Positions 8,798 to 31,855 of a stretch of 64,000 bases of DNA are shown here, one piece after another. A program made the position numbers and the translations under genes. Origin of the DNA: a bacterium (GTDB taxonomy: Bacteria > Patescibacteriota > Dojkabacteria > SC72); the NCBI GenBank assembly GCA_021108295.1, contig JAIORF010000102.1, forward strand, positions 7,260 to 71,259, written 5' to 3'. A model generated the notes under the pieces. The model was not told the DNA's origin, made no database searches, and saw only the letters and a list, made by a program, of their open reading frames with translations. Position 1 is the stretch's first letter; each line of letters begins with the position of its first letter.

Positions 8798-8820
8798 TAT
8801 TATTTCTAAACATACTGTCT

Positions 8821-10218
8821 ATGATGTTTGATAAGAAACAGGACACAAGTGATCCATATCATTCTGGATATATTGCTCCTAAGGGTTGGCAACCGAAAAA
8901 TCCCGATGAGGATTATGTAATATCCCTTTTGGATATTGAACTATCTGATGGTATTGGTATGGATAAATTTGAGACTGCTGTGGCTGCTTGTGCAGCAGAG
9001 AGTTCTACTGGTACATGGACTAAGGTCTATGATGGGAAGGATAGTGGGGTGAAGATGGCAGAGAAAATGAGGGCTGTAGCGTTTGATTTGGATCCTCAGA
9101 CAAAGACCTTTAAGATTGCTTACAAGAAGGAGCTGTTTGAGACAGGAAATCTCTCTGGTTTACTTGCAGGTGTTGTTGGTAATATCGATGGTATGAAGAT
9201 GCTAAAGGCTTTTAGGTGTCTTGATGTGAGATTCCCAAGAGAATGGGTAGAGTCTATGCCAGGTCCTGCATTTGGTATAGATGATATGAGGGATTTGTTA
9301 GGGATTCCTACTGGCCCTATCCTTTGTACTGTACCTAAGCCAAAGGTTGGTAGGACTGCTAAGGAACAGGCTAATCTTGCTAAGATATTGTTCACAGCAG
9401 CGGATGGTGAGTATCAGGGTATTAAGGATGATGAGAACTTAACTAGTTTACATTTTAGTAAGTTTGAGGATAGGGTGGAGGAGATACACAAGGTGAGAAA
9501 GGATATTGAGGGAAAGACTGGTAAAAAGAAGTTCTATCTTTGTAATGTGACGCATAGCAATATTGATGTGATGTTAGAAAGAGCTGAGATGATTAAGTCT
9601 GCTGGTGGTAGGTGGATGATGATGGATGTTGTTGTTACTGGATTTAGTGCAGTTCATACCATGAGGTTAAAGAATCCTGGTTTAGCTATACATGCACATA
9701 GGGCAATGCATAGTTTGTTTGATAGAGAGAGTGGTCCGGGTGTGTATGATATGGGTGAAATTAAGGATTTTTCAATGTCTATGATTGTGATTGCTAAATT
9801 GATGCGTTTACTTGGTGTTGACGCACTTCATGGTGGTGCTCCTAAGACTAAGATGGAGAACTATGGAGAGCCAAAGCTTATCAAAGATGCTTTGCAGGCG
9901 GATAATACGCCATCTTCTAGTATGACTCTGGGACAGAATTGGTTTGGTATGAAGCCAGTATGGCATGTTGCTTCTGGGGGTTTACACCCTGGCTCTTTGG
10001 AAGAAGTGATTAAACAGTTAGGTGAAGATATCATGATACAGTGTGGTGGTGGAGTGTTGGGTCATCCATGGGGCATAGAGGCTGGTGTGGAGGCTGTAGT
10101 GCAGGCTAGAGACCTTTCAATGAGTAGGGTGGATATGAAGGGTTGGATAGTGGAAAATCCTGATAGTGCTTTGGCTAAGGCTGCTCAACATTGGGGGTTT
10201 GATCCAAGGATTGTATAG
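8821..10218 (+). CDS. rbcL: RuBisCO large subunit, form II/III type
   Basis: CTVPKPKVG (K175/K177), GIKDDENL (carbamylated-Lys loop), AIHAHRAMHS, and GGLHPG...QCGGGVLGHPWG are present. The start is set at the MMFDKK ATG to clear the rlmN overlap. Confidence 0.85.
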   Translation: MMFDKKQDTSDPYHSGYIAPKGWQPKNPDEDYVISLLDIELSDGIGMDKFETAVAACAAESSTGTWTKVYDGKDSGVKMAEKMRAVAFDLDPQTKTFKIAYKKELFETGNLSGLLAGVVGNIDGMKMLKAFRCLDVRFPREWVESMPGPAFGIDDMRDLLGIPTGPILCTVPKPKVGRTAKEQANLAKILFTAADGEYQGIKDDENLTSLHFSKFEDRVEEIHKVRKDIEGKTGKKKFYLCNVTHSNIDVMLERAEMIKSAGGRWMMMDVVVTGFSAVHTMRLKNPGLAIHAHRAMHSLFDRESGPGVYDMGEIKDFSMSMIVIAKLMRLLGVDALHGGAPKTKMENYGEPKLIKDALQADNTPSSSMTLGQNWFGMKPVWHVASGGLHPGSLEEVIKQLGEDIMIQCGGGVLGHPWGIEAGVEAVVQARDLSMSRVDMKGWIVENPDSALAKAAQHWGFDPRIV

Positions 10219-10600: not shown

Positions 10601-12319
10601 ATGAAATACTCACAAATATTTACAAAAACGGACAAGAATGCGAAGAAATATAACTCTGCTAATGCTACGCTACTAACTAAAGGTGGCTTTATTGATCAAA
10701 CAATGGCAGGAGTTTACACATTTCTACCTTTAGGTACTAGAGTATTACGAAAAATAGAGAAGATTGTAAGAGAAGAAATGGATAAGATAGGGGTAGAGAT
10801 AGTGATGCCAGCCCTATCGCCCAAGGAAGCTTGGATTAATACTGGGAGATTGGAGGAGGTAGACATTCTTTTTAAGGTATGTGGTGCTAATGAGCTTTCT
10901 AGAAGGGTTAATAGTGCAGAATATATCTTAAATCCTACACATGAGGAGATAGTTACACCATTGGCTATGAAGTTTAGAAGGAGTTATAAAGATTTTCCAT
11001 TTGCACTCTATCAGATACAGACTAAGTATAGAAATGAGGCTAGACCAAAGTCTGGGATACTAAGGGGTAGGGAGTTTCTAATGAAAGATCTTTACAGTTT
11101 TCACACATCCATAGAGGATTTTAGAGAGTATTATGAAAAAGCTAAACAATCATACTGGAATATATTCGAGAGGTTAGAGATTAAAGAGGATACTGTGCTT
11201 GCAGCTGCATCAGGTGGTACATTTACAACAGAATTTTCTCATGAGTTTCAGACAAAGTGTGAGACAGGGGAAGATTTGATTTTTCAAGTACCAAGTACAG
11301 GGGAGGCGTTTAATAGGGAGGTTGCACCATCGAAAGCTCCAGAAAGTGCTCAAGAGAGTGAAATGAAAGAGATGGAGCATAGGAATGAGCCTGGGATAAT
11401 TGGAGTAGAAGCTCTGTGTAGGGTGTTTAATATAGAAGATTTCCAAACAGTCAAGACTCTTGTATTTGAGACCGATAGTAAGGAGCAGCCTGTAGTGGTT
11501 GTAGCTTTGAGAGGAGACTATGATATCAATGAAATGAAGCTTATGGAGATTGTAGGATGTAGTAAGATGAGATTGGCTAAAGAGGAGGTGGTAGAGAAAA
11601 TAACAGGTGCAGAGATAGGGTATGCAGGTATAATAAATCTGCAAGAAGGAGTGCCGGTGTATATTGATGACTCTATAGAATCTCTTGTCAATTTCGAATG
11701 TGGAGGGAATCGTACTGACTATCATATACTAAATGTGAACTGGGGTAGGGATATAGAAAAGCCTGAAAAGTTCCACGACATCAAAGTCGCTAAGCAAGGA
11801 GACTTATTTCGTGAAACAAATGAAGTGTATGACACCTTCAGAGCTAGTGAAGTGGGTAACATATTCCCTCTATTTGATAAATTCTCTAAGGCGCTGGGGT
11901 ATAACTATGTAAATAAAGAGGGTATAGAAAAGCCCGTCATTATGGGTTGTTATGGATTTGGTATAACACGTGTACTCGGGGTACTAGTTGAGAAGTATCA
12001 TGATGAGAATGGTATTGTTTGGCCATACAGTGTAGCGCCGTTTCACATCCAATTATTGCATATAGGAGAGGATGGGTATAAACGAGCAAAGGAGTTGGAA
12101 AGAGAATTAGAAGCGAATGGGTTTGAAGTTTTGTGGGATGATAGAGAGAGTGTGAGCGTTGGGGAGAAATTTGCAGATGCAGATTTGATAGGTTGTCCAT
12201 TTAGGATAGTGGTGAGTGATAAAACTCTCACTCAGGAATCTGTAGAGATTAAGAAAAGGAATGAATCTGAACCTAATATTGTCCCTATGGATGAAATTGT
12301 CTCTTTCCTAAGGGTTTAA
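10601..12319 (+). CDS. proS: Prolyl-tRNA synthetase (bacterial type with insertion/editing domain)
   Basis: Class II motifs are present (FLMKDLYSFH; GCYGFGITRVLGVLVEKYHDENGIVWPYSVAPFHIQLL). Confidence 0.85.
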   Translation: MKYSQIFTKTDKNAKKYNSANATLLTKGGFIDQTMAGVYTFLPLGTRVLRKIEKIVREEMDKIGVEIVMPALSPKEAWINTGRLEEVDILFKVCGANELSRRVNSAEYILNPTHEEIVTPLAMKFRRSYKDFPFALYQIQTKYRNEARPKSGILRGREFLMKDLYSFHTSIEDFREYYEKAKQSYWNIFERLEIKEDTVLAAASGGTFTTEFSHEFQTKCETGEDLIFQVPSTGEAFNREVAPSKAPESAQESEMKEMEHRNEPGIIGVEALCRVFNIEDFQTVKTLVFETDSKEQPVVVVALRGDYDINEMKLMEIVGCSKMRLAKEEVVEKITGAEIGYAGIINLQEGVPVYIDDSIESLVNFECGGNRTDYHILNVNWGRDIEKPEKFHDIKVAKQGDLFRETNEVYDTFRASEVGNIFPLFDKFSKALGYNYVNKEGIEKPVIMGCYGFGITRVLGVLVEKYHDENGIVWPYSVAPFHIQLLHIGEDGYKRAKELERELEANGFEVLWDDRESVSVGEKFADADLIGCPFRIVVSDKTLTQESVEIKKRNESEPNIVPMDEIVSFLRV

Positions 12320-17917: not shown

Positions 17918-19084
17918 ATGATTAGTATGTTTAGTAAAAAAGGAAGAAGTGAGAGAAAGTTAGAAGAAGTAACAAAGCTTCTTCAACGGCTTCGTATTCC
18001 AATTGGGTTGGTATTTACACCAACAAATCTCAAAGAAGAGAAAAAGAGGTTCTTTAATTCAGAAATGTATGAGCCTAATTTTGAGTATAGGGGGATAAAG
18101 AATAAGAATAATGAGATATTTAGAGAGTTGTCTGGTCTAAAGACTATTACAGATATTGACCCAAGGATTTCTGATTTCTATATTGAGTTAATAGAGTCAA
18201 AGAAAGACTCTAGTGCTTTAATGCATGGTGTGGGGAATAATGAATTGGTGACAGAACTGTCATTGAAAAAGTATGGAAAGGTTTCTCCGAAGCTTTTTAG
18301 AAATGCTAGTAGAGTGCTTAGGGGTAAGTTGGATAGTTATAATGTTGTTCAGGCAACTACTGTTGATAAAGGTAAGGTCTTGAATTACAATCAAATAGAT
18401 GAGGTTTTCAAGGTCGCTTTTGAAAGTCTTGGACTATCGGATTGGTCTATATTCCCTTCCAAAAACATTTCAAAGAATGCGGTTAAGGTTGGAATTAAAC
18501 GTAAACAGATATTTGTTGATCCAAATATCACACGATCAGAGTATAAGTTAAAGAAACTTCTTGTGCATGAGATTGGTACTCATGTTTTGCGATCACACAA
18601 TGGTTTTAAAACTGGGTTCCCAGCTTTAGGTAATGCTAATTTGCCCTCATATCTTGATGTAGAAGAGGGTCTTGCGACTTGGAATGAGGAAGCTATGGGT
18701 TTTCTTACTGATAAATGGCTTAAGAAGAAAGCTGGCTTGGTATGGGCAATATATATTGGAGAGGAGATGACGTTTAGGCAGTTGTATAATGCATTGTCAG
18801 GTAGTTTCTTAAAATATTCTGCATGGGATATTGCTTATAGGGTCAAGAGAGGACTAGGGGATACCAGTTATTCGGGAATATATGTGAAGGATGTAGTTTA
18901 TTTCAGGGGTTTTAGGAAGGTAAAGCGTGTATTGGAGAAGGATAGTGCAATGTATGAGAAGCTGTATGCTGGTAAGATAAATATTAAACAGACTAAGTGG
19001 GTTGATGAGGGGTTGTTACCAAAGCCACCAATTGTGCCGTCTAAGGAGTTGTGGAATGATATTTTTGAGAAAGCTAATCTCTAA
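17918..19084 (+). CDS. DUF1704 / QEGLA-motif (MATCAP-family) putative zinc metallopeptidase
   Basis: HEIGTH (HExxH) is followed by VEEGLATWNEE (QEGLA-like). The start is moved from the GTG at 17903 to the first ATG. The stop overlaps the convergent ATP-grasp gene by 11 nt. Confidence 0.5.
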   Translation: MISMFSKKGRSERKLEEVTKLLQRLRIPIGLVFTPTNLKEEKKRFFNSEMYEPNFEYRGIKNKNNEIFRELSGLKTITDIDPRISDFYIELIESKKDSSALMHGVGNNELVTELSLKKYGKVSPKLFRNASRVLRGKLDSYNVVQATTVDKGKVLNYNQIDEVFKVAFESLGLSDWSIFPSKNISKNAVKVGIKRKQIFVDPNITRSEYKLKKLLVHEIGTHVLRSHNGFKTGFPALGNANLPSYLDVEEGLATWNEEAMGFLTDKWLKKKAGLVWAIYIGEEMTFRQLYNALSGSFLKYSAWDIAYRVKRGLGDTSYSGIYVKDVVYFRGFRKVKRVLEKDSAMYEKLYAGKINIKQTKWVDEGLLPKPPIVPSKELWNDIFEKANL

Positions 19085-20030
19085 AGGCTGTAATCATAGC
19101 TTCTGCAATGTTTATAGGCTCTCCATCTGTAATTTTAGTCTCATAGGCTTTGAAACCAGGATGTAAGCTAATCTCTTGTATATATGGTTTATCGTTTTTA
19201 AACATAAAGTCTACTGCGATGAAGTCTGCATCGAAGATATTAGCGACCTTCTGTGCAATTTGTGTGATTTCTTCGTTTGGTTCGTTGTACATATGATAAC
19301 TTCCACCACTTACTGTCATAAAACCTTTTGTTGCCTTACGTTTCCAACCACCAATTACTTTACCAAACTTTACAAATATGCGTACGTCTTCTGGATTGGT
19401 AGAGAATTCTTGTAAAAAGAAGGCCTTATGGTCTTGTTTACATAAATGTTTTTGGTTTAGATCTTTTACATTGTCTAGTTTGTATACATTCTTTTTTACT
19501 TTCTTCTTACCAAATTTCCTATCAATTCTGTTTACTCCTGCGTATTCTTTGATAATTAGGGGGTAGTTGTTTAATACATCTCTAGCTTTAGTGTAATCGC
19601 CACTAGTAGAGTAGTATGTGTCAAAATATGGGATTTTGTGTGTAGCAAAGATTTGTGCAGTGTAGATTTTGTTGTAGTAGGGGAGTTTCTTGATAGCGTT
19701 ACTGTTATATACCAAGATCTTGTTATCAGGGTGAGATAAATTGTATTGATCAGTCCAGTCGACTATCAGTCTTTTCATCTGGTATTCTCTTGGACTATGT
19801 AAATTGTGACCTCTGAGTATGATATGAGAGTATTCTGTGATATGGTTACCTGCGAATTTTAGATGTGTTTCACCATCGAGTAGGAAGAATTCTATTTGGT
19901 TGTTGTATACAAAATCGTATGGAATATCTTTTTTGTCCAATTCCTCCATCATCCGTTTTACAGCTGAAGGGTATTTACCAACTCCTTTGACTTTTACTCG
20001 TGGTTCTTTGTCTATGATGAGGTATTTCAT
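19074..20030 (-). CDS. RimK-like ATP-grasp amidoligase (operon gene 5)
   Basis: ATP-grasp pattern: IKEYAGVNRIDRKFGKK, FFLQEF...EDVRIFVKFGKVIGGWKRK, and ADFIAVDFMFKNDKPYIQEISLHPGF. The ATG overlaps the upstream stop (TAATG). Confidence 0.6.
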   Translation of the reverse strand: MKYLIIDKEPRVKVKGVGKYPSAVKRMMEELDKKDIPYDFVYNNQIEFFLLDGETHLKFAGNHITEYSHIILRGHNLHSPREYQMKRLIVDWTDQYNLSHPDNKILVYNSNAIKKLPYYNKIYTAQIFATHKIPYFDTYYSTSGDYTKARDVLNNYPLIIKEYAGVNRIDRKFGKKKVKKNVYKLDNVKDLNQKHLCKQDHKAFFLQEFSTNPEDVRIFVKFGKVIGGWKRKATKGFMTVSGGSYHMYNEPNEEITQIAQKVANIFDADFIAVDFMFKNDKPYIQEISLHPGFKAYETKITDGEPINIAEAMITAFRD

Positions 20031-21739
20031 TATATTGTGTTGATTATTTTAATATGTTTCTTTCGTTTATATTTCTTTATAATCTTCATTTCGGTTTTGT
20101 GGGATTTAATGTCTTTTGTGACAAAGAGAATATCTATTTTATCAAATCCTAGTCCATGTTCTTTGACTTCATCTAGGTCTCTGTATTGTAGGATGATGGT
20201 GTCTAGGGCTGCGTTGACTTTGAGGGCTTCAATGGCCTTCCAGGTATCAATATTGTCATTAAATTCACAGTTATTAATTAATATCTTATGGTCTTTGTAT
20301 ACACCGACATTTTCTTCATTATTAATGTATCCTTTTTTCCTTAGTAGTGTAGGGATATCGTCTGTACTTTGGCCAATTACTACATATTTCTTTGTGTGAT
20401 TGTCTTTGAGTAGGGCTTGAACGTAGTAGGTGAGTGCTTCCGTTTGTACTTCTCCAATTACTGGGAAGAAGTTAAGGTATGATTCTGGCATAGTATTGAC
20501 CTCTAGTATTGCACCGTTGTCTTTTGTGAGTGGCTTTGAGATGTCTTTACACATTATATCTACACCTAAGGTAAATACATGCATTGTAGAGGCTATTGAT
20601 TCTACGATTATTTTTATCTCAGGAGATACTTTGTCTGAGAAGTCTTCTGTTATTCCTCCTCTACTCATACTTGCTATACCTCGTACATAGATTTTTTGAT
20701 TTTTTGTAGGTATAGATTCTAATGTTAAGCTCTGTTTTTCTAAGAAGGTTGTTAGTGGATCATCAAATATTATTGGCTTTAAGGTATGTGAAGGGTTACT
20801 TGTATTTCTTCTTGGGTCTTTGTTTGTTTCGTCTATGAGTTTCTTGATAGAAGATTTTCCATTTCCGATGATAAAGGCTGGTATTCGTTTGGTACAGACT
20901 TTTAGTTCCCCGTTGATAACCAAAAGCCTGTAGTCTGAGCCGTCTTTAGGGCCGTCTACCTGTTCCTGTATCATTATCTTTTTTTGCCAAGCACTTCTTT
21001 TTTTTGCTTCTACCTGTTTTGTGGCGTATTCTAAAGCATTGTAGGCTTTTTCCTTAGAGTCAATACCTACGACAACACCACTTCCTCCTGTTAGACCAGT
21101 TGGTTTGATAACTAGAGGCTTCTCATATTGAGCCCAGACTTTATCAATGTCTTTTTTGGAATCAATAATTTCCCATTTAGGTAGGGGCAGACCCATTCGT
21201 TCTATGATTTTGTTTGTTGACCATTTGTCTCGTTGAACTTTCATACCAAAGGTTGAGTCTTTTGTTGAAGCTATGGAGCAGGTTGCTTCAGATCCTTTAC
21301 CACAGCCTAGTGTGTAGTATCTATTCCAAGTGTAACCGAATCCTGCGGAGGTTCCGGGAACTATATCTTCGTTAGCAATTGTGAGTGTAGTTTCGTATCC
21401 TAGTTCCTGAGCTTTATGTAGTATTGGGATGGTAGACATAGAGTTAACTCTTTGTTTGATTACGGTGCCTAGTGTGTAATCTTGAGCTTCTTGTAGAGTT
21501 ATTTCTGAGTTGGAGAGTTTTCTAAAGGTTTTTGCACAATTTCTCCAGATACCTGGTAATTTGGAGCTTATAGTTAGGAGGTTGTTTTCTAATTTGTAGT
21601 TTTCAATAAATATTGGGTGAAATCCTTGGATTAGGTTTAGTAGTTTGAAGAGTTCTTCGCTTTCTTTAATGTCTGAGATCTTAATTTGAGTAGTAGGGGA
21701 TTCAAGGTTTAGGCCTTGTATTGTTTTGAGGTTTTTCAT
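20030..21739 (-). CDS. ATP-grasp ligase resembling the cyanophycin-synthetase N-terminal (G) domain, with N- and C-terminal extensions (operon gene 4)
   Basis: LVIKPTGLTGGSGVVVG, YRLLVINGELKV, and IIGNGKSSIKKLIDETNKDPRR resemble CphA-like GDGKxTIxELI..N.DPRR. MSRGGITEDFSDKV is also present. No Mur-ligase domain is seen. Confidence 0.6.
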   Translation of the reverse strand: MKNLKTIQGLNLESPTTQIKISDIKESEELFKLLNLIQGFHPIFIENYKLENNLLTISSKLPGIWRNCAKTFRKLSNSEITLQEAQDYTLGTVIKQRVNSMSTIPILHKAQELGYETTLTIANEDIVPGTSAGFGYTWNRYYTLGCGKGSEATCSIASTKDSTFGMKVQRDKWSTNKIIERMGLPLPKWEIIDSKKDIDKVWAQYEKPLVIKPTGLTGGSGVVVGIDSKEKAYNALEYATKQVEAKKRSAWQKKIMIQEQVDGPKDGSDYRLLVINGELKVCTKRIPAFIIGNGKSSIKKLIDETNKDPRRNTSNPSHTLKPIIFDDPLTTFLEKQSLTLESIPTKNQKIYVRGIASMSRGGITEDFSDKVSPEIKIIVESIASTMHVFTLGVDIMCKDISKPLTKDNGAILEVNTMPESYLNFFPVIGEVQTEALTYYVQALLKDNHTKKYVVIGQSTDDIPTLLRKKGYINNEENVGVYKDHKILINNCEFNDNIDTWKAIEALKVNAALDTIILQYRDLDEVKEHGLGFDKIDILFVTKDIKSHKTEMKIIKKYKRKKHIKIINTI

Positions 21740-21748
21740 TGGTTGGGA

Positions 21749-22735
21749 TTATGAATTTAGATATTTTTGTTGTATATATTTCATTATTGGTATTGCTACT
21801 CTTGCAATTTCTCCCTCATCTACTTTGTAGTGTATTCTAAGTCCTGGGTTGTAGTTGATTTCGTTAATACCACATTTCACTTTCTTGGTAATGTCTGGTG
21901 TTATTATATCTACACCTCCAAATTCTGTTCCTATGGCGTGTACTGCGTCTATTGCTAGCTGTTTGTAGTAAGGGTGTACTTCCTTATTGCATTCTTGTGT
22001 AGTTCCTCCTGTAGAGAGATTACAGCTATATCTTAGGATTATATCTTCTTTGTCTTGTGGTATGGAGTCTAGTGTCATATTGAGTTCACGGAGTCGTAAG
22101 TTTACTTCATTATCAATCTTGATTGGTTTTAAGAGGTCGGTTTTTCTTTTGTTATTAAAAAGATTTATTAGTTCTTGTATGCTGTTTTTACCATCGCCTA
22201 TTACATGTGCGGCTTTTCTTCTTACTGTACCTACGATTTCATTTCCTACTACTAGGAGTCTGTAGTTTTCTCCTTCTAGAAATTCTTCACCTAAGACGCC
22301 TATATTACCTTTTGATTTGTTTTTTGTTTTAGCTATGGTATAAGCCTCTAGGACTTCTTTTTCATTGCTTGGGAGTAGTGTAATTCCTATTCCTCCTAGT
22401 TGTTGTGTTGGTTTGATCACAATTCTTTTATATTTGGCAAAGAATTTTATTGCATCAATTGGGCTTTTGAGTTTCTCTTGTTTTGGAACTGGTATTGCAG
22501 ATTCTTCAAGTACTAGGTTTGTGAGGTGTTTTCTTTTTGCAATTGTTGCGGATGTGGTATTGGTAAGTGGTGTAGCGGTGTTTATTATGTGCCATACCTT
22601 ATCTTTGCATCTGAATTCTGCAAGAAGGCTTGGTACGAGTACTTTGTAGTGTATTTTTAATTCATCGGCAGCTTCTAGGTAGTATGCTAGGTGTACATTG
22701 CCAGCTTCTTTTAGGTAGTCTGTGTATGTTTTCAT
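21749..22735 (-). CDS. Stand-alone ATP-grasp ligase, cyanophycin-synthetase G-domain-like (operon gene 3)
   Basis: IVIKPTQQLGGIGITLL, YRLLVVGNEIVGTVRRKAAHVIGDGKNSIQELINLFN, and NLSTGGTTQECNKEVHP...GGVDIITPD. Confidence 0.6.
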   Translation of the reverse strand: MKTYTDYLKEAGNVHLAYYLEAADELKIHYKVLVPSLLAEFRCKDKVWHIINTATPLTNTTSATIAKRKHLTNLVLEESAIPVPKQEKLKSPIDAIKFFAKYKRIVIKPTQQLGGIGITLLPSNEKEVLEAYTIAKTKNKSKGNIGVLGEEFLEGENYRLLVVGNEIVGTVRRKAAHVIGDGKNSIQELINLFNNKRKTDLLKPIKIDNEVNLRLRELNMTLDSIPQDKEDIILRYSCNLSTGGTTQECNKEVHPYYKQLAIDAVHAIGTEFGGVDIITPDITKKVKCGINEINYNPGLRIHYKVDEGEIARVAIPIMKYIQQKYLNS

Positions 22736-22744
22736 ATATGTATA

Positions 22745-24211
22745 TTACTTAAATATAGAGGAGGTATCAATGAGGTATCCTGTGAGTTCAGATCTCCCTA
22801 TTACTAGAGGGTAGGGGATATCGTTTGTAATGACGGCGTTTAAGGCCTTTTTATCTCCAGATATTTTAATACGGATATTAATTACAGGTCTGATTACAAT
22901 TTGTCCATCTTCTACAATTTTTGCAAGTCTTACTATGTCTGGATGGTTGGTGATTTTCTTCCCTTTGGCATCAATATATTCTTGTGCGTCTTTAAAGGTG
23001 GGGAAGCTCTTTGGTGTTTCTAACTGTTTGAAGTATTTATTTATATCGGTGTATCCTGTTCTGCTAGAGAGTCTTGTGGAGATACGGGTGGTAAGTACAC
23101 CGGTGTCTATGAATGATTTAGTTAGTTCTTTTTCTATCTTTATTTTTGTTTTCTTTTTCTTGTTTAGGATTTTAGGTTTGTGGTATACGTATACTTTTTC
23201 AGTGATGTTGACGACCTTACGACCACTTATAGATTCGATGCTTTCTTCAATTTCTCCCCCAAAGAGGTTTTTTCCTATTCTAATACCGTGTTTGATGCTT
23301 TTTACTTCTAGTCCTTTGACTTTTTCGAGTCTCCATCTTAGACCTGCTTGATTTGCTACCTGTATTCCTAGTCCTGGTCTTGCGTTGACCTCAAACACAA
23401 CGGGTCCTTTGTCACGGTCAATTGCGATGTCTACTCCGATATATCCGAGTTTTGAGGCTTTTTGGCATTTGAGGGCAATTGTAAGGAGGTTGTTCCAATT
23501 TGGTATTTGGATACCACTTAGAGATTTGTTTTCTTCAAGGTCTACTGTTTTGTCAATCATTTCGTATGTATCACTAATTAGGCTTGTTGGTTGCATATGC
23601 ATTGAGTAGGTGGTTATCCCTGTGCTTATATCGATGCCTGTACATATTGCTCCAGTGTGTAGGTTGGCTGTACCGTTAGATCTTTTGGTAGGTAGTCGTG
23701 TCATTGCCATGATGGGGACTCCATTAAAGCAGATTATTCTAATATCAGGTACTCCTTTGTAGGAGTATTGTTTAAGGAATGGGTCTGTTTTTACTCTTTC
23801 TTCGATGATTGCAGTATCTTTTCGGGAACCCATGGAGTATCTGCCTTCTAGGATGTTTTCTATATGTAGTATTATGTCCCTTTTAGACATTATCTTGCCG
23901 TTTGGTCTAATCCAGGCGTTTTGTCCTTTCTTTTTGCCGTAGAATACTATGATTCCGTTTCCTCCTGTTCCTTTGTTTGGTTTTATCACAAAGCTTTTTG
24001 GTAGTGATTCCCAGTCAAGGTATTTCAGTTGTTTTTTGCTTCTAATGAGTTTGTATACGTCGGGTGTTTTTATCCCTTCTTTTTTTAATATTCTTTTGGT
24101 GACTATCTTGTTGTCTGCAATGGCTTTTGCAGAGAGAGAGTTGTATGGTCTTATATATTCTTGGTTTCTTCTGTTTAATCCAAGAATGTCTTTGAGGGTG
24201 TTCCTATGCAT
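22745..24211 (-). CDS. ATPgrasp_ST / alpha-L-glutamate-ligase-related RimK-like ATP-grasp (operon gene 2)
   Basis: The N-terminal ILGLNRRNQEYIRPYN motif typifies the 7TM-associated RimK-related family. It is followed by FVIKPNKGTGGNGIIV and GVDIAIDRDKGPVVFEVNARPGL. Confidence 0.6.
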   Translation of the reverse strand: MHRNTLKDILGLNRRNQEYIRPYNSLSAKAIADNKIVTKRILKKEGIKTPDVYKLIRSKKQLKYLDWESLPKSFVIKPNKGTGGNGIIVFYGKKKGQNAWIRPNGKIMSKRDIILHIENILEGRYSMGSRKDTAIIEERVKTDPFLKQYSYKGVPDIRIICFNGVPIMAMTRLPTKRSNGTANLHTGAICTGIDISTGITTYSMHMQPTSLISDTYEMIDKTVDLEENKSLSGIQIPNWNNLLTIALKCQKASKLGYIGVDIAIDRDKGPVVFEVNARPGLGIQVANQAGLRWRLEKVKGLEVKSIKHGIRIGKNLFGGEIEESIESISGRKVVNITEKVYVYHKPKILNKKKKTKIKIEKELTKSFIDTGVLTTRISTRLSSRTGYTDINKYFKQLETPKSFPTFKDAQEYIDAKGKKITNHPDIVRLAKIVEDGQIVIRPVINIRIKISGDKKALNAVITNDIPYPLVIGRSELTGYLIDTSSIFK

Positions 24212-24866
24212 TATCTTTTTCTTCTAGTATAGATTGAAATCTAAGAAGGTCTTTGAATCTTAGGCCTTTGAATTGTCCAATTAGTATGTTTATGAGTATG
24301 AATACGGGTATTATCCAGAGGTTGTTTACTAGGTTGGTGGAGATTACGTCTCTTGTGATGATAAACCAGCCTAGTGCTGAGATTGCGATTGTAGAGAAGA
24401 GTGTAAGGAATGATGTTTTGAGGGATTTCTTTACATATTGTTTTGTAAAGAAGTCTCCTAGTGCTGCGATTGAGATCATAGCTAGGGATGGGATGTATGC
24501 CATGTTTTCTAGTGTTAGTCCATATTTGTCTATTACCATTAGGAAAAGTGTTAGGGAGAGTATGAGTATGCAGTAGTTGATAGCGATTCTTGTTATGTAG
24601 TGCATTCTAATCCTTCGTAGCACAGAGTAGGAGAGTAGGGTGCTAAAGATTACTACGGTAGTAATTGCTAATCCATACTTGAGTCCTGTGTAGGAGTATG
24701 CGATTGCGAGTATTATGGGTGCGTATATTCCGTATGTTTTGTTACCGAAGATGTATCTTCCGATACTTACTAGGGTAGCTAGTAGAGCAATTGTGATGAA
24801 GAGCTCTAAAGTTTGACTGGGTACACCATTTCCCAGTATCCAGGTTGTAAATGGAGAGTATTCCAT
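24204..24866 (-). CDS. Seven-helix integral membrane protein, probable 7TM partner of the ATP-grasp ligases (operon gene 1)
   Basis: Seven hydrophobic helices in 220 aa. It overlaps the downstream ATP-grasp gene by 8 nt, and it is the first gene after the rplL terminator. Confidence 0.5.
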   Translation of the reverse strand: MEYSPFTTWILGNGVPSQTLELFITIALLATLVSIGRYIFGNKTYGIYAPIILAIAYSYTGLKYGLAITTVVIFSTLLSYSVLRRIRMHYITRIAINYCILILSLTLFLMVIDKYGLTLENMAYIPSLAMISIAALGDFFTKQYVKKSLKTSFLTLFSTIAISALGWFIITRDVISTNLVNNLWIIPVFILINILIGQFKGLRFKDLLRFQSILEEKDNA

Positions 24867-25418: not shown

Positions 25419-25940
25419 TTAGGAATCTTTTTTAGTTATGCCTGTTAGGGCAACGGTTAGGCTCTTAGCATTACCGGTTACTGCGTTCATAAAACCACTT
25501 AGAGGTGCGCTCATTGTACCAACTAGCATACCGAGTAGTTCTTCTTTAGAAGGTATTTCTGCAAGTTGCATTACTTTTTCTTCACTTAGGAATTCTCCTT
25601 CATATACACCGCCTCTTGTGTCTAGTAGTTCTGTTTCTTCTTGAACGTCTTTTACTAGTTTAGCGGGGGTTGTAGGGTCTTCTCCGAAGTATATTACGGC
25701 TGTATTGCCATCAAAGTCTTGTATTTCTACTGGTTGTTTTGTGTCTTGTAGTGCTATTTTAAAGATCGTATTCTTTATCACAGTGAAGTTTGCACCTTGT
25801 TCTTTTAGGTCTTTTTTGAGTGCTGTGACTGTTGTTGTGTCAATACTGCCTGAGTTTACTAAGAAGTATCCTTCGTGGTTAGAGAGGATGTCTTTGTACT
25901 GTTTTAGTAATTCAGTTTTTTTGTCTTGGCTGATTGCCAT
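25419..25940 (-). CDS. rplJ: Ribosomal protein L10
   Basis: L10 N-terminal pattern (KKTELLKQYKDILSNHEGYFLVNSGSIDTTTVTALKKDLKEQGANFTVIKNT). Confidence 0.9.
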   Translation of the reverse strand: MAISQDKKTELLKQYKDILSNHEGYFLVNSGSIDTTTVTALKKDLKEQGANFTVIKNTIFKIALQDTKQPVEIQDFDGNTAVIYFGEDPTTPAKLVKDVQEETELLDTRGGVYEGEFLSEEKVMQLAEIPSKEELLGMLVGTMSAPLSGFMNAVTGNAKSLTVALTGITKKDS

Positions 25941-26031
25941 GTCTTTAGATTATTAATTAATTTGAGTAGTCATATTTTGCCTCGTATGGGTTTATGTTCA
26001 TACCATATGTCTTAGGCGATTAACTAGGGTG

Positions 26032-26060
26032 ATTATATATGTTTAGGTGTAGGTGGTCAA
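26032..26060 (-). promoter_or_regulatory. rplJ promoter (TTGACC-17-TATAAT) ahead of a ~90-nt L10 leader
   Basis: On the minus strand: TTGACCacctacacctaaacataTATAAT. It lies 12 nt downstream of the cassette-A terminator U-tract. Confidence 0.6.
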
Positions 26061-26071
26061 GTAGGGTAGTG

Positions 26072-26755
26072 GTAGGAAAGAAAAAGAACACCCTTAATAT
26101 TTGTTGACCGAAGTCAGAAATATTCCTCTGCTAGGAGGGGGTGTTCTCGTTCATATGGGGGTGGGGTTATTCCTAGTCGTCGTAATCCTCTATTAGTACG
26201 GGATATACTGCTGTGATCCCTGCTAAGGCGATGAGTACGTATACCAATACAACGGGATTCCAGCTCGGTATCATTATTACGCTGAGATATGCTATCGCTC
26301 CTCCTACAAGATAGGGGAAGCTTTTCTTGCAGATGAATATTGCAAGATCCTCGAGGATCTCTCCTAGGAATTTTTGTGTTTCAGGCTTCATCTCTGTCAC
26401 TTGACTTGTATCTTTCCTCATCTGTCTTATTCTTTTCTGCATTTTATTTCTCCTTTTAACAATATTGTTTGTTTTTATTATAACCATACTATTAAACTTC
26501 AACTGCTTAAAATCTAATATATGGTTATAACTATCCTAAGGAGACTAACCTTTTTTCCATATGAAAACTTGTATAAATATGGATATAAATATCACATAAT
26601 ACAAGAATATTTTAAAGAACTAGTTTCTTATAAAAGAAACATAAAAAAGATAAGGAAATCTCTCTCTATGAAGCTTTTATGTATGTTTTGGGGATATATT
26701 AAGGTGCAGTATTAACTATCTACTACATTATACTATAGGACGACATTAGTGTCAA
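26072..26755 (-). repeat. Cassette unit A: sigma70 promoter, ~250-nt conserved leader, small 2-TM ORF, conserved structured terminator
   Basis: Promoter TTGACA-17-TATAAT at 26727-26755 (minus). The leader 26473-26726 is near-identical to copies at 27157, 27843 and 30855. The terminator stem AGAACACCC/GGGTGTTCT at 26085-26147 (inner TGAC-CGAA-GTCA hairpin) is followed by a U-tract. Confidence 0.8.
26173..26442 (-). CDS. Small two-TM membrane protein (cassette A cargo, 89 aa)
   Basis: The start is moved to the internal Met (MQKRIRQMRKD...), preceded by AAGGAGA. The N-terminal MKFNSMVIIK of the listed ORF is read from the conserved leader. Two hydrophobic helices. Confidence 0.55.
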   Translation of the reverse strand: MQKRIRQMRKDTSQVTEMKPETQKFLGEILEDLAIFICKKSFPYLVGGAIAYLSVIMIPSWNPVVLVYVLIALAGITAVYPVLIEDYDD

Positions 26756-26767
26756 TTACACGTATGG

Positions 26768-27437
26768 GCAAGAAAGAAAAAAGCACCCTTAATATGTATT
26801 GTTGACTAATGAAAGTCAAAAATATCATAAACCTCTGTTAGGAGGGGGTGCTTTATTCATATGGTTAGGGATGCCAGATAGTAGACAGAAATTTCGAGAT
26901 AATCTGAAATGATCCATGAATACTTATCGCTTCTACAATATATACGAATAATAGTAATGCTACACATATATATGTGAAGAGGATAAGTACCCTCGTTTCT
27001 TCCTTGATTGGATTCCAGACCTTGGGTATTTTAGTGGGTATTGGGCACTCTAAAGACCACTTGAGAAGAGAGAATCCCCCATAAAAAAGCCCAGCTATGA
27101 CTCCCGTTATGGTAATCGCATCATAGATGTTCATGTTTAAGCTCCTTTTTAATTGTTTTATTATAACCATACTATTAAACTTCAACTGCTTAAAATCTAA
27201 TATATGGTTATAACTATCCTAAGGAGACTAACCTTTTTTCCATATGAAAACTTGTATAAATATGGATATAAATATCACATAATACAAGAATATTTTAAAG
27301 AACTAGTTTCTTATAAAAGAAACATAAAAAAGATAAGGAAATCTCTCTCTATGAAGCTTTTATGTATGTTTTGGGCTGTTTAAAGGTGCAGTATTACTAC
27401 CTACTATATTATACTATAGGGCAGGGGGTGTAGTCAA
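26768..27437 (-). repeat. Cassette unit B (same architecture as A)
   Basis: Promoter TTGACT-18-TATAAT at 27408-27437. Leader 27157-27407. Terminator stem AAAGCACCC/GGGTGCTTT at 26780-26854, a compensatory variant of the stem in A and D. Confidence 0.8.
26865..27134 (-). CDS. Small two-TM membrane protein (cassette B cargo, 89 aa)
   Basis: The start is at the internal Met (MNIYDAITITG...), preceded by AAAAGGAG. It is unrelated in sequence to the cargo of A, C and D. Confidence 0.55.
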   Translation of the reverse strand: MNIYDAITITGVIAGLFYGGFSLLKWSLECPIPTKIPKVWNPIKEETRVLILFTYICVALLLFVYIVEAISIHGSFQIISKFLSTIWHP

Positions 27438-27449
27438 TATGGTGTATGG

Positions 27450-28124
27450 GTGAGAAAGAAAAAGCACCCTTAAATTATGTATTGTTGACTAATGAAAGTC
27501 AGAATAAATAAAGTGGGTGCTTTTTTCATATGGGGGGGGTTAGAACAAGTTCCAAACAAATACGACAGCCATTATGAACAGAAGGGCAATATTCTTAGCC
27601 GCTTTACGGGCAAGCTTTCTTGCTTCTTCTTCTCTTGCTTCGTCTTCTTTTGCTTCAGATTCTACAACTAAGGTATTCACCTTATAGGTAGTTTGTATTA
27701 TCACTATTAGTGATAATATTCCAACCTGGATTTGCTGCGTTTTTAACAACGAGAGCAAAGCTTCCAAGAAAAGCATCGCATCCTTAAAGAAAAAAACTAC
27801 ATCCTTAATCATTTTATGTCTCCTTTATATTATAGAATATTGTTTTATTATAACCATACTATTAAACTTCAACTGCTTAAAATCTAATATATGGTTATAA
27901 CTATCCTAAGGAGACTAACCTTTTTTCCATATGAAAACTTGTATAAATATGGATATAAATATCACATAATACAAGAATATTTTAAAGAACTAGTTTCTTA
28001 TAAAAGAAACATAAAAAAGATAAGGAAATCTCTCTCTATGAAGCTTTTATGTATGTTTTGGGCTGTTTAAAGGTGCAGTATTAACTATCTACTACATTAT
28101 ACTATAGGGCAGTGGTGTGGTCAA
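27450..28124 (-). repeat. Cassette unit C (same architecture)
   Basis: Promoter TTGACC-17-TATAAT at 28096-28124. Leader 27843-28095. Terminator stem AAAGCACCC/GGGTGCTTT at 27461-27523. Confidence 0.8.
27540..27812 (-). CDS. Small two-TM membrane protein (cassette C cargo, 90 aa)
   Basis: MIKDVVFFFKDAMLFLEALLSLL... The charged middle is EAKEDEAREEEARKLARKAAK. AAGGAGA RBS. Confidence 0.55.
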   Translation of the reverse strand: MIKDVVFFFKDAMLFLEALLSLLKTQQIQVGILSLIVIIQTTYKVNTLVVESEAKEDEAREEEARKLARKAAKNIALLFIMAVVFVWNLF

Positions 28125-28127
28125 TGT

Positions 28128-28153
28128 GTAGAAAAGGACCCTTTCGAGTCCTT
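28128..28153 (-). terminator. Intrinsic terminator of rplA
   Basis: Minus-strand RNA reads GGAAGGACUCGAAAGGGUCCUUUUCU. It ends 4 nt before the -35 of the cassette-C promoter. Confidence 0.55.
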
Positions 28154-28175
28154 CCATATTCATAATCAAAGAATA

Positions 28176-28862
28176 TTACTCCTTACTGTAGCTAATCTTT
28201 ACACCTGCGCCCATTGTAGGAGCAAGATGAAGACTATTTAGTAGTTGAGAAGAACTCTTGTTTAATACCTCTTCTAGGGTAGTAATACAAGTATGTACAT
28301 TCTCCATTAGGTCTTCTGTAGACATATCTAACTTACCTGCGTTCATATGTATAACTCCACCCTCATCACAAACAAAAGTCTGTTTACCCTGCTTATACTC
28401 CTTAATCGCACTAGCAATATCTTCAGTTACTGTACCACTCTTAGGATTAGGCATAAGGCCCTTAGGACCTAATTCTCTACCAAGTGCTGCTATTGAAGCC
28501 ATGACTGTAGGAGTTGCTATTGCAACATCAAAGTCTGTCTTTCCGGCCTTAATATCTTTTGTTAGCTTATCTAGGCCTACAATATCTGCTCCAGCCTTCT
28601 TAGCAATATCTTCCATATCTGGAGAACAAAAGACTGCAATCTTTACATTACTAGTACCACTAGAGTGGGGTAGTGTGTATGCACCTTTAATGGATTTAGG
28701 ATCCCTATCCTTTGGTACTTTGATATCAGCATGTACTTCTAGTGTACCTACAAAGTTAGAGTAAGAGAGCTTCTTTACCTGTTCAATAGCCTCTTTAAGG
28801 TCGAGTATGACATTATTGTCATATCCTTTTATACTCTTATTATATCGTTTCCCTCTTTTCAT
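28176..28862 (-). CDS. rplA: Ribosomal protein L1
   Basis: L1 signature across the full 228 aa (GTLEVHADIKVPKDRDPKSIKGAYTLPHSSG...). Confidence 0.9.
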   Translation of the reverse strand: MKRGKRYNKSIKGYDNNVILDLKEAIEQVKKLSYSNFVGTLEVHADIKVPKDRDPKSIKGAYTLPHSSGTSNVKIAVFCSPDMEDIAKKAGADIVGLDKLTKDIKAGKTDFDVAIATPTVMASIAALGRELGPKGLMPNPKSGTVTEDIASAIKEYKQGKQTFVCDEGGVIHMNAGKLDMSTEDLMENVHTCITTLEEVLNKSSSQLLNSLHLAPTMGAGVKISYSKE

Positions 28863-30184: not shown

Positions 30185-30349
30185 TTACTTTATCTTTGTC
30201 TCCTTATGTAAAGTATGTTTTTGACATTTCTTACAGTATTTGTTTTGTTCAATTTTTTCTTTAATATTCCTAGTTTTGTATGTAGTGTAATTCCTGTTTT
30301 TACATTCACTGCATTGTAGAACTATAATATTTCTTTTTGCCTTTGCCAT
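30185..30349 (-). CDS. rpmG: Ribosomal protein L33 (C4 zinc-ribbon type)
   Basis: Hand-translated 54 aa: [54 protein letters not shown]. It is not in the ORF track (<60 aa). Confidence 0.8.
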
Positions 30350-30437
30350 TTGTTTCTGGGTTTCAATTTATGATGGTGGGAAATATACTGAGGGTATTAT
30401 ATATTGAAAAGTAGGGGAGGTCAAATATTGAGTGTAG

Positions 30438-31138
30438 GTAGGAAAGAAAAAGAACACCCTAAATATTTGTTGACCGAAGTCAAAAATACCTCTGTATAAG
30501 AGGGGGTGTTCTGTTCTTTTCATAGGGGGGGTTAGTAGTTGAAGTTCTCTAGGACGAGAATCCACACTGCGGTAAGGCCTAGTACGATAAGGAGCAATGC
30601 AGTAGCGGTGAAGCGAAAAGAATCTTTTTTATTCTTACTCATCTTCTACTCTCTCCTCTTCTGCCTTCTTGAACAGTATTGCTAATGCTATCAGTTCCGT
30701 TATAAAGGCCAAAGCCCAGACGGGAAACGTGGCTTCTAAGAAGAACATTATGACTATTTGTATCAAGACAATTAGCCACAGTAAGTAATAAATGTTCAAT
30801 TCCTTTATAGAGTCTTTCACTTTTTCCTTTAACATTTTGTTCTCCTATTTATATTTTTATTATAACCATACTATTAAACTTCAATATACTTAAAATCTAA
30901 TATATGGTTATAACTATTCTAATAAGGAGTAACCTTTTCCCATATGAAAACTTGTATAAATATGGATATAAATATCACATAATACAAGAATATTTTAAAG
31001 AACTAGTTTCTTATAAAAGAAACATAAAAAAGATAAAGAAATCTCTCTATATGAAGCTTTTATAGGTGTTTTGGGATATATTAAGGTGCAGTATTAACTA
31101 TCTACTATATTATACTATAGGGTGAAGGTTGGTGTCAA
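30438..31138 (-). repeat. Cassette unit D (solo copy, slightly diverged)
   Basis: Promoter TTGACA-18-TATAAT at 31109-31138, 11 nt from the tRNA-Thr 3' end. Leader 30855-31108 has about 10 substitutions relative to A-C. Terminator stem AGAACACCC/GGGTGTTCT at 30451-30512. Confidence 0.8.
30635..30835 (-). CDS. Small two-TM membrane protein (cassette D cargo, 66 aa)
   Basis: MLKEKVKDSIKELNIYYLLWLIVLIQIVIMFFLEATFPVWALAFITELIALAILFKKAEEERVEDE. Confidence 0.55.
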   Translation of the reverse strand: MLKEKVKDSIKELNIYYLLWLIVLIQIVIMFFLEATFPVWALAFITELIALAILFKKAEEERVEDE

Positions 31139-31149
31139 TCTGCATATAT

Positions 31150-31226
31150 TGGAGCTGGATCTGAGAATCGAACTCAGGACCTCATTCTTACCATGAATGC
31201 GCTCTAGCCATCTGAGCTAATCCAGC
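31150..31226 (-). tRNA. tRNA-Thr (anticodon GGT)
   Basis: GCTGGAT...ATCCAGCTCCA. Anticodon loop ATGGTAA. T-loop TTCGATT. Confidence 0.75.
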
Positions 31227-31270: not shown

Positions 31271-31855
31271 CTAATCTTTTAGGTTGTTTGTCTTCTTAAA
31301 AAATATATACCAAAGAGGCAAAGAAAGTACAAGTAACCCTAACGAATATGCAGGTGCATACTGTGTAGAATATTCTCCAACTCTTGTAAGGAAGTAGTTT
31401 ATTAAATTATATGATGCTGTAGGGATAGCAATAACACCAACTATGCTATATATCATTAAGGAAATAAAGGTATAACCTTTATCTATCCATTCTATGGCAT
31501 CTTTCTTCTTTATCCTTTTAATACCAACCCTATGAAGTATGAAAAGAAGTGACATAGATATGAATATTGATAAGCTATTAACTAATCCATTCTGTCTTGT
31601 AGTTTCATTCCAGCAATATTCGTTACCCTCTATCTCTATAACCTCTCCATTGTCATAACATTTTTCCTCATTAAAGTCTTCCATATATTGAATATCATTT
31701 ACTTGGTGAAGAGAGTAAGAAAAGTGTAGTGGGGCAATGTATGAGGCCCCTGTTTGTATTAGGTATGCTCCTGAAAAGAGGATGGAAACTAAAGTTATTA
31801 AACACATCAGGTGTAAGTATGTCTGGAGTAAGGCTTTGACTGTAATCTTTTTCAT
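31271..31855 (-). CDS. Hypothetical polytopic membrane protein
   Basis: ORF with 3-4 hydrophobic helices, sitting between tRNA-Tyr and tRNA-Thr. No recognisable motif. Confidence 0.4.
   Translation of the reverse strand: MKKITVKALLQTYLHLMCLITLVSILFSGAYLIQTGASYIAPLHFSYSLHQVNDIQYMEDFNEEKCYDNGEVIEIEGNEYCWNETTRQNGLVNSLSIFISMSLLFILHRVGIKRIKKKDAIEWIDKGYTFISLMIYSIVGVIAIPTASYNLINYFLTRVGEYSTQYAPAYSLGLLVLSLPLWYIFFKKTNNLKD

Follow-up and report, generated by a model that had tools for sequence, protein, structure and literature searches.

Near-identical expression units around unrelated small membrane protein genes in a Dojkabacteria genome: an unusual and probably translationally gated gene family

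How can the non-coding DNA around a set of neighboring genes stay almost the same while the genes themselves share nothing? The question is raised by a locus in a 64,000-nt stretch of contig JAIORF010000102.1 (positions 7,260 to 71,259 of the forward strand, assembly GCA_021108295.1), hereafter the window, from a bacterium of the Dojkabacteria within the Patescibacteriota or candidate phyla radiation (CPR). Members of this group have small genomes and encode many unexplained small membrane proteins, which are supposed to mediate episymbiosis. On the minus strand of the window lie four units, each made of a promoter, a long leader, a Shine-Dalgarno (SD) sequence, a small open reading frame (ORF) and a terminator. 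Three of them run head to tail in the order C (27450-28124), B (26768-27437) and A (26072-26755) between rplA (28176-28862) and rplJ (25419-25940), with C adjoining the rplA terminator and A adjoining the rplJ promoter, and the fourth, D (30438-31138), stands alone between tRNA-Thr(ggt) (31150-31226, minus strand), directly 5' of it, and rpmG (30185-30349). A first-pass annotation had placed the three units and the solo copy at these positions and had taken them for self-contained cassettes that resemble one another much more closely outside the ORFs than within them, and on both counts our analysis agrees. The explanation that we favor, tentatively and on the strength of sequence comparison and modeling, is a lineage-restricted multigene family in which one translationally gated expression frame is kept alike by selection and recombination around fast-evolving small membrane proteins.

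The shared architecture begins with a promoter that matches TTGACA-N17/18-TATAAT at 11-12 of the 12 positions in a consensus scan of both strands, namely TTGACC-17-TATAAT in C (28096-28124), TTGACT-18-TATAAT in B (27408-27437), TTGACA-17-TATAAT in A (26727-26755) and TTGACA-18-TATAAT in D (31109-31138). The leader that follows is about 275 nt long (~27813-28089 in C, ~27135-27401 in B, ~26443-26720 in A and ~30836-31102 in D) and contains a 245-nt block that forms a four-copy direct-repeat family; a 29-mer from it occurs four times in the window, against 0.00 occurrences expected from shuffles. With gaps allowed, the leaders of B and C are 100% identical, that of A is 97.8% identical to these two, and that of D is 91.5-93.7% identical to them. 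The leaders are 83-100% identical over ~300 nt, while the ORFs behind them give no alignment. An AGGAG sequence stands 5-7 nt upstream of the ATG in all four units (27820-27824 in C, 27142-27146 in B, 26450-26454 in A and 30842-30846 in D), and the ORFs, each with two hydrophobic segments, encode 90 residues in C (27540-27812), 89 in B (26865-27134), 89 in A (26173-26442) and 66 in D (30635-30835). Unit D holds a second ORF, D2 (30532-30642, minus strand), of 36 codons, with a single hydrophobic helix and GAGGAG in front of it, whose start overlaps the end of ORF D by 8 nt.

Beyond the stop codon lie a C-rich tract and the motif CCATATGAA, then the terminator, in which an 8-9-bp G+C stem surrounds one inner hairpin or two, with a U-tract behind it (z = -4.0 to -6.9; 27454-27521 in C, 26772-26852 in B, 26076-26145 in A and 30442-30510 in D). 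The terminator of C lacks one inner hairpin, and the outer stem carries one compensatory change, from A-U in one type to G-C, between the A/D type and the B/C type. The C-tract is 8 nt long in C (27532-27539), 7 in D (30525-30531), an interrupted 4+5 in A (26157-26166), degenerate in B (CCCTAACC) and 10 in D', the counterpart of D in a sister species (L005, ~7305-7314). Homopolymers of such length are prone to slippage; the tract lies outside the ORF, and its final 2-3 C's are engaged in a predicted 5'-3' pairing. From the U-tract to the next -35 box the distance is 12-16 nt, depending on the tract end chosen. Most of what the first-pass annotation recorded of this layout stands, including the consensus promoter and the SD sequence in every unit, the near-identity of the A, B and C leaders, the hairpin with its U-tract, and the sizes and two hydrophobic segments of the four larger ORFs. 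Its figure of 96% for the D leader was slightly high, its 12-nt gap is the lower value of a range, its conserved poly-C tract and stem-loop do not extend to the degenerate tract of B or to the missing inner hairpin of C, and its single ORF per unit overlooked D2.

The ORFs A, B, C, D and D2 show no mutual similarity in pairwise comparison, in DNA or in protein, as had been noted for the first four, and they are also orphans. Among 5.8 billion cluster representatives the sole match of ORF A was A', its counterpart in the sister species, and B, C, D and D2, concatenated and run exhaustively with HMMER against 1.84 billion representatives of ~15 billion proteins, returned only their own sequences. 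Pfam, PHROGs, PADLOC and NCBIfam gave nothing below E = 0.01 for any of the small ORFs or for a 194-aa neighbor. An AlphaFold2 model of ORF A is all-helical, with low confidence (pLDDT 61.6). The products would most plausibly be toxin-, holin- or exclusion-like, or surface-interaction proteins.

Judged from sequence, these ORFs are real coding regions, because each has an AGGAG in front, a frame length unlikely by chance and hydrophobic helices, and the coupled D/D2 layout is kept in the sister species. All five are open, with SD and hydrophobic helices retained, and a random 89-codon frame would be open with a probability of ~0.001 at the local base composition. Each spans the variable segment as far as the post-stop motif or ends a few nucleotides short of it, and ORF B ends inside the motif. 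Their SD sequences also set them apart from the rest of the genome, in that an SD-like motif precedes only 3 of the 49 host ORFs that reach 110 aa versus 5 of 5 cassette ORFs (AGGAG or GAGGAG), a hypergeometric probability of ~2e-5 by arithmetic on these counts. Many host genes look leaderless, because a TATAAT-like box lies 6-12 nt ahead of the ATG (for example at the starts 16887(+), 15175(-), 40862(+) and 50312(+)). Antisense to each leader there is a further ORF of 53-64 aa on the plus strand (26521-26715, 27204-27383, 27891-28070 and 30904-31065), annotated as a gene in some public assemblies. We rejected a plus-strand gene at this position, given the lack of a ribosome-binding site, a variable C-terminus and a compensated frameshift between leader types; the ORF is probably spurious, though serviceable as a search tag.

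Among 185,579 species-representative genomes an invariant leader 26-mer was found only in JAIOSB010000004.1, where it occurs twice. This contig belongs to a sister species of ~85% DNA identity, whose rplA-rplJ interval contains a single unit, A', and which has another, D', ahead of rpmG, with no others at these loci. The leader-antisense ORF, used as a protein tag against 5.8 billion clusters, retrieved the same two species only. Judged by its L1 protein, which shares no more than 72% identity with proteins labelled Candidatus Dojkabacteria (WS6), the organism of the window is a Dojkabacteria-like CPR bacterium. Comparison of the two genomes separates the frame from its contents. Promoter plus leader are 98.0% identical between D and D' and the 3' modules 94.6%, compared with 88-89% for the rplJ and rpmG promoter/leaders and 77% for a plain intergenic spacer (rplL-7TM). 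The ORF region between these modules is 43% identical as DNA and effectively unalignable; the D and D' proteins are 21% identical end to end and the D2 and D2' proteins 26%, with the same two-ORF layout in D' and AAGGAGG ahead of D2'. Of all the unit ORFs, only A is conserved in the sister species, and it differs from A' by nine nonsynonymous changes and one synonymous change (synonymous divergence, dS, of 0.018 and nonsynonymous divergence, dN, of 0.044). For 17 conserved neighbor genes dS is 0.34-1.6 and dN/dS 0.02-0.13, and the 194-aa ORF has a dS of 0.14.

Within the leader, a 97-nt core is invariant in six copies from the two species, while the segments next to it and the 3' module diverge by 15-25% from one copy type to another. 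A seventh copy, A' as deposited at NCBI, carries a 2-nt insertion plus a single substitution in a predicted apical loop. The leaders are gene-conversion-like mosaics of two variant types, with A' carrying the D-type of two patches and A the B/C-type, and B and C share variants of their own in both the 5' and the 3' modules. The first-pass annotation had called the arrangement the reverse of ordinary gene-family duplication and had likened the units to cassettes. Flanks that are conserved around ORFs that are not, an unalignable ORF between the 98%-identical leaders of D and D', and variation among close relatives in whether a given site is occupied all bear this out. The contrast with ordinary duplication is nonetheless softened by the 21-26% end-to-end alignments and by the mosaic leaders, because concerted evolution of the flanks with very fast divergence of the ORFs is a sufficient alternative to cassette capture.

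At both sites the placement is precise: a terminator or tRNA lies immediately upstream, and the -35 box of the promoter of a ribosomal-protein gene follows downstream. In the relatives L008 and L011 (L1 76-79% identical) the rplA-rplJ spacer measures 166-168 nt and holds no cassette, and the rplA terminator is followed immediately by the rplJ -35 box. Because the two adjoin in these cassette-free genomes, the rplA terminator hairpin (28131-28175, minus strand; GGACTCGAAAGGGTCC followed by TTTTC) marks the upstream edge of the insertion site, and its downstream edge is the rplJ promoter (26032-26060, minus strand; TTGACC-17-TATAAT). At the other site the rpmG promoter (30396-30424, minus strand; TTGACC-17-TATAAT) lies directly 3' of unit D. 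Among closer relatives, L013 (L1 89% identical) has a cassette promoter directly after rplA, at the end of its contig, and L012 (L1 88% identical) has no cassette. Since presence and number vary among close relatives and the spacers of distant ones are free of cassettes, we interpret the units as recent, lineage-restricted insertions at a terminator|-35 junction. Sequence comparison also marks the rplA|rplJ and pre-rpmG junctions as insertion hot spots in other relatives, and in L009 (L1 73% identical) the rplA|rplJ junction is occupied by an unrelated membrane ORF of 139 aa that has a promoter of its own (6768-7187). Before rpmG there is a 149-aa ORF in L009 (3978-4427) and an HAD hydrolase in L011 (91-723).

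Profiles of the leader and of the 3' module, searched with nhmmer, detected no degenerate copies in the rest of the window or at the locus of any relative, and a metagenome pattern scan gave one chance match, which falls within a pilus gene on an unrelated CPR contig (L004). Four leader and terminator patterns had no match in IMG/VR, nor did whole units match phages or plasmids by BLAST, and there is thus no sign of a viral or plasmid origin. The cassette transcripts and the rplJ leader open alike with TAGTTAAT, a few nucleotides past the -10 box (26700-26715 and 26015-26030, minus strand), and this shared start may be a trace of an origin of the cassette promoter from that of rplJ. The 194-aa multi-transmembrane ORF without family match (31271-31855, minus strand) lies between tRNA-Tyr and tRNA-Thr(ggt); it would be another lineage-specific insertion, because these tRNAs are just 3 nt apart in L008 and L009. 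Directly 3' of rplL is a cluster of genes for a 7TM_transglut protein, an ATP-grasp protein and several RimK-like ligases (19074-24866, minus strand), in the same position in every relative examined.

We rejected an assembly artefact as the source of the repeats. The units lie on a 472,469-nt contig and their proteins carry NCBI locus tags (K8R14_02935-02980); contigs from three separate sequencing runs match unit A at 100% identity along 700 nt; independent assemblies contain the repeats; and the same modules recur in the sister species, so that the noise envisaged in the first-pass annotation, with flanks confined to this locus, is ruled out. All of these three-run contigs begin where A ceases to match the other leaders, and the shared starting point is the signature of a genuine repeat in an assembly graph. 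An ENA assembly made independently from the same organism (L001) contains two cassettes, one fewer than the window's array, and no ORF C. In it the leader of C runs into the ORF of B (10738-11024, compared with 27152-28125 of the window), with the join inside the identical B/C leaders, which would be either a real unequal-crossover variant or a skipped assembly loop.

The predicted structure of the transcript offers a common function for the frame. The leader folds better than its shuffles (z = -4.96), and the predicted probability that the SD is unpaired is 0.003-0.03 in all six copies, versus a median of 0.27-0.39 when the leader is replaced by its mononucleotide shuffles. The SD is predicted to pair with CUCCU in four of six minimum-energy folds; this CUCCU is part of a CUCCUUA (CTCCTTA at 27907-27913 in C, 27220-27226 in B, 26537-26543 in A and 30923-30929 in D) that remains intact in a patch otherwise differing by indels between leader types. 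This pairing is predicted to span the base of a 24-bp hairpin (27849-27899 in C, 27162-27212 in B, 26479-26529 in A and 30861-30912 in D). The two ends of the transcript may also meet, as UUCAUAUGG in the leader is exactly complementary over 9-12 nt to CCAUAUGAA behind the stop codon, and the pairing is present in three of six full-transcript folds. On the minus strand, the leader motif TTCATATGG occupies 27927-27935 in C, 27240-27248 in B, 26557-26565 in A and 30940-30948 in D, and its complement CCATATGAA lies just 3' of the stop at 27525-27533 in C, 26856-26864 in B and 26150-26158 in A, with CCCTATGAA as the counterpart in D (30519-30527). Two one-sided changes in leader stems preserve their pairs, and variable leader columns are enriched at unpaired positions (p = 0.0005-0.08). 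Taken as a model, the leader is probably a translational gate.

In the explanation that we favor, the frame would consist of the sigma-70 promoter, the ~275-nt structured 5' untranslated region (UTR), the AGGAG, the 9-nt post-stop motif and the branched intrinsic terminator. The conserved CUCCUUA would pair with the SD, and UUCAUAUGG with CCAUAUGAA behind the stop codon, leaving an abundant primary transcript translationally inert until a common trigger, for which processing, unfolding or a bound factor are candidates, opened all cassettes together, a logic that we liken to that of the hok and aapA1 toxin mRNAs. Purifying selection, which would hold the leader core constant, together with recombination among copies and between co-occurring species, could account for the uniformity of the frame, and the homology of the flanks would permit ORFs to be exchanged, duplicated or deleted without a dedicated recombinase. 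The ORFs would either be replaced through this homology or diverge extremely fast, and they would encode small membrane proteins, bitopic or hairpin-shaped, on which selection is diversifying or relaxed. The window encodes competence proteins (ComEA/ComEC at 2685-5018, plus strand, and DprA at ~37.7-38.6 kb), whose presence bears on DNA uptake and on exchange through flank homology. Such genes, like the RuBisCO large-subunit homologue at 8755-10218 (plus strand), are typical of the CPR.

Several observations weigh against this explanation. The minimum-energy partner of the SD in B and C is a different U/C-rich stretch, not CUCCUUA; the 3' motif of D has a 1-nt deletion and the leader no compensating change; and compensatory changes occur in 0 of 74 predicted leader pairs. 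The leader fold is a thermodynamic prediction on RNA of 25% G+C, and it is beyond the reach of covariation because the paired columns are invariant and the copies nearly identical. The comparison stands on two full genomic contexts plus fragments, and part of the identity between species may reflect recent introgression instead of selection, given that dS between A and A' is near zero. A bolder form of the same idea, which we regard as unlikely, makes the locus a recombinase-free plug-in platform, in which a new ~250-nt riboregulator and its 3' element form a closed, silent mRNA whose portable homology lets CPR bacteria swap, duplicate and hyper-diversify membrane effectors or toxins. Exchange would then take place within and between species at safe-harbor sites just upstream of ribosomal-protein promoters, with SD-dependent initiation in a genome that otherwise hardly uses the SD.

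The same facts have to be weighed under readings in which the frame is not a shared gate for useful proteins. A neutral by-product has a real but minor chance of being the answer; here a promoter/5' UTR module would have spread by tandem duplication and gene conversion, and the ORFs would be young or decaying, with little or no function. That the ORFs are orphans, that the same two sites host other lineage-specific genes in relatives, that the units fall under the operational definition of mobile promoters, and that dN/dS between A and A' is ~2.5, from just 10 changes and so compatible with relaxed constraint, all fit this account. It is harder to reconcile with five of five ORFs that are open and equipped with an SD and hydrophobic helices, with a coupled D/D2 layout that outlasts complete sequence turnover, with a leader core that stays invariant amid the divergence of its adjacent segments and of the 3' module, or with a D/D' leader more conserved than those of ribosomal-protein genes, and propagation of a promoter alone leaves the conserved terminator unexplained. 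The conserved ~250 nt might itself be the product, either the gene of a small non-coding RNA or an element that binds protein at the DNA level, with incidental ORFs. Against this, the conserved terminator stands after the ORF, with none between leader and ORF; every copy has an SD and an ATG after the leader, and the ORFs stop just ahead of the conserved post-stop motif or, in B, within it. The extreme conservation of the core, its strong predicted fold and its lack of a match to known families are what such an element would lead one to expect, and an antisense product is disfavored by the missing ribosome-binding site and unlike C-termini of the leader-antisense ORF. We consider this reading distinctly improbable.

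The first-pass annotation had offered two analogies of its own. One, to type I toxin mRNAs, is partly sustained, as sequestration of the SD and 5'-3' pairing are both predicted. True type I toxin-antitoxin loci, in which putative membrane-damaging peptides would be encoded by an inactive mRNA and an antisense or trans-acting RNA on the shared leader would neutralize them all, are nevertheless a doubtful identification. The small hydrophobic products, the strong promoters, the long 5' UTR predicted to hide the SD, the conserved 5'-3' complementarity and the tandem intergenic repeats, as in E. coli LDR and QUAD/sib, argue for it. Set against these are proteins of 66-90 aa with two helices where fewer than 60 aa and one helix would be usual (D2, with 36 aa, is the exception), unrelated proteins where the toxins of known tandem families are paralogous, the lack of any opposite-strand promoter common to the units in our scan, and the lack of an Rfam family at either threshold. 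The other analogy, to integrons, is not supported. Recombination sites in the hairpins, with ORFs shuffled by a recombinase encoded elsewhere, could in principle produce conserved repeats that alternate with unrelated small ORFs, large near-perfect hairpins on both sides of each ORF, and presence, absence or replacement of ORFs between relatives. We hold this to be highly improbable, as no integrase, transposase or reverse transcriptase was found in the 64 kb or in 20 kb of the sister species, promoter and terminator are present in every unit, the variable segment starts at slightly different points past the hairpin in each unit, the weak end-to-end similarity of D and D' suggests divergence instead of capture, and, with comEA, comEC and dprA present, homologous exchange would be sufficient.

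If a lineage-restricted, gated family is the right reading, the locus combines a fixed regulatory frame with a protein free to vary, and would open the evolution of orphan genes to direct study. The leader is a candidate for a new cis-regulatory RNA, with an anti-SD element, a 24-bp hairpin and a 5'-3' clamp; SD-led translation in a mostly leaderless or SD-less genome would bear on start-site selection in such organisms; and products acting as toxins or exclusion factors would constitute a new defense or competition module of uncultured bacteria. The plug-in platform, were it correct, would add a new class of exchangeable peptide cassettes gated by RNA.

No description of this arrangement was found in the literature searched, as the first-pass annotation had supposed, and comparison with known systems places the units close to some and apart from others. 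Integron and chromosomal super-integron arrays alternate a conserved structured repeat with unrelated, mostly small ORFs, and the same alternation is seen here. Unlike them, the units have their own promoter, leader and terminator and number one to three per site, and neither intI nor attI was found in the 64 kb; the 3' modules show GTCAAC and, read by eye and not by a formal pattern scan, no RYYYAAC/GTTRRRY pair typical of attC core sites. With no intI or attI, no attC cores and an 11-12/12 consensus promoter in every unit, we rejected an integron array. The recombinase that the first-pass annotation proposed to look for nearby is likewise absent, in that no integrase, transposase, recombinase or reverse transcriptase was detected in the 64 kb (Pfam on ORFs of at least 110 aa outside 18.9-38.9 kb, precomputed Pfam inside it) or at the sister-species locus. 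A diversity-generating retroelement was rejected since no reverse transcriptase was found in the window and the variable regions have no alignable template in common, and a miniature inverted-repeat transposable element (MITE) or insertion sequence since there is no transposase and the unit ends, read by eye, have no terminal inverted repeats; only the functional -35 TTGAC recurs at both edges, as expected of any promoter-bearing insert. Because neither a recombinase, a transposase or a reverse transcriptase nor a shared antisense promoter was found in the 64 kb, the units fall outside integrons, diversity-generating retroelements, insertion sequences and MITEs and, strictly, type I toxin-antitoxin systems.

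Comparable in behavior are the Borrelia erp loci with their 'upstream homology box' and the vlp, vsp and vpma families of Mycoplasma, in which near-identical promoters and 5' regions precede coding regions that are unlike one another. There as here, copies recombine and flanks are mosaic. In those families, however, conservation reaches into the signal peptide of a lipoprotein, and promoter homopolymers or a recombinase switch expression, whereas in the units conservation stops short of the ATG, the poly-C tract follows the stop codon, and the 3' end is conserved too.

A type I toxin typically has a single helix and fewer than 60 aa; E. coli LDR and QUAD/sib are tandem intergenic repeats of this kind, and the toxins of known repeat families are paralogous. 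Full-length hok mRNA of the hok/sok system is translationally inert until processed. In aapA1/IsoA1 of Helicobacter the SD of aapA1 is buried in a long 5' UTR, 5' and 3' ends pair, and the full-length mRNA is inert until processing (PMC5416894). The units have in common with type I toxin mRNAs an intergenic and sometimes tandem arrangement, a strong promoter and a small hydrophobic product and, as predicted, a long fold with a sequestered SD and long-distance 5'-3' pairing; they differ in their 66-90-aa two-helix proteins, in the unrelatedness of the copies and in the lack of a detectable antitoxin RNA promoter, as the consensus scan of both strands of the window found no opposite-strand site common to the units. 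The only strong antisense promoter-like site (30299-30328, plus strand; TTTACA-18-TATAAT, 11/12) lies inside rpmG and is directed at unit D; the sister species has a poorer version of it (TATGAT), and nothing corresponds to it at units A, B and C. Rfam 15, searched with the window, a 5.4-kb region and one unit, gave no family at the gathering score and, at E <= 10, chance-level matches far below it.

Also comparable are the putative mobile promoters of Matus-Garcia, Nijveen and van Passel (2012), in which, likewise, similar upstream DNA precedes non-homologous coding sequences within and across related genomes. Their operational definition, upstream regions that align over more than 50 nt at 80% identity or more with flanking coding sequences that do not align, includes the cassette units (PMC3488235), but it covers only part of the phenomenon. 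Mobile promoters comprise 50-100 nt of promoter, while the units share ~300 nt that is mostly transcribed leader and, unlike them, have a matching 3' terminator module, occur in tandem and carry a cargo made up entirely of small orphan membrane proteins. This unusual and probably translationally gated gene family is best regarded as kin both of the mobile promoter/5' UTR families and of type I-toxin-like mRNAs.

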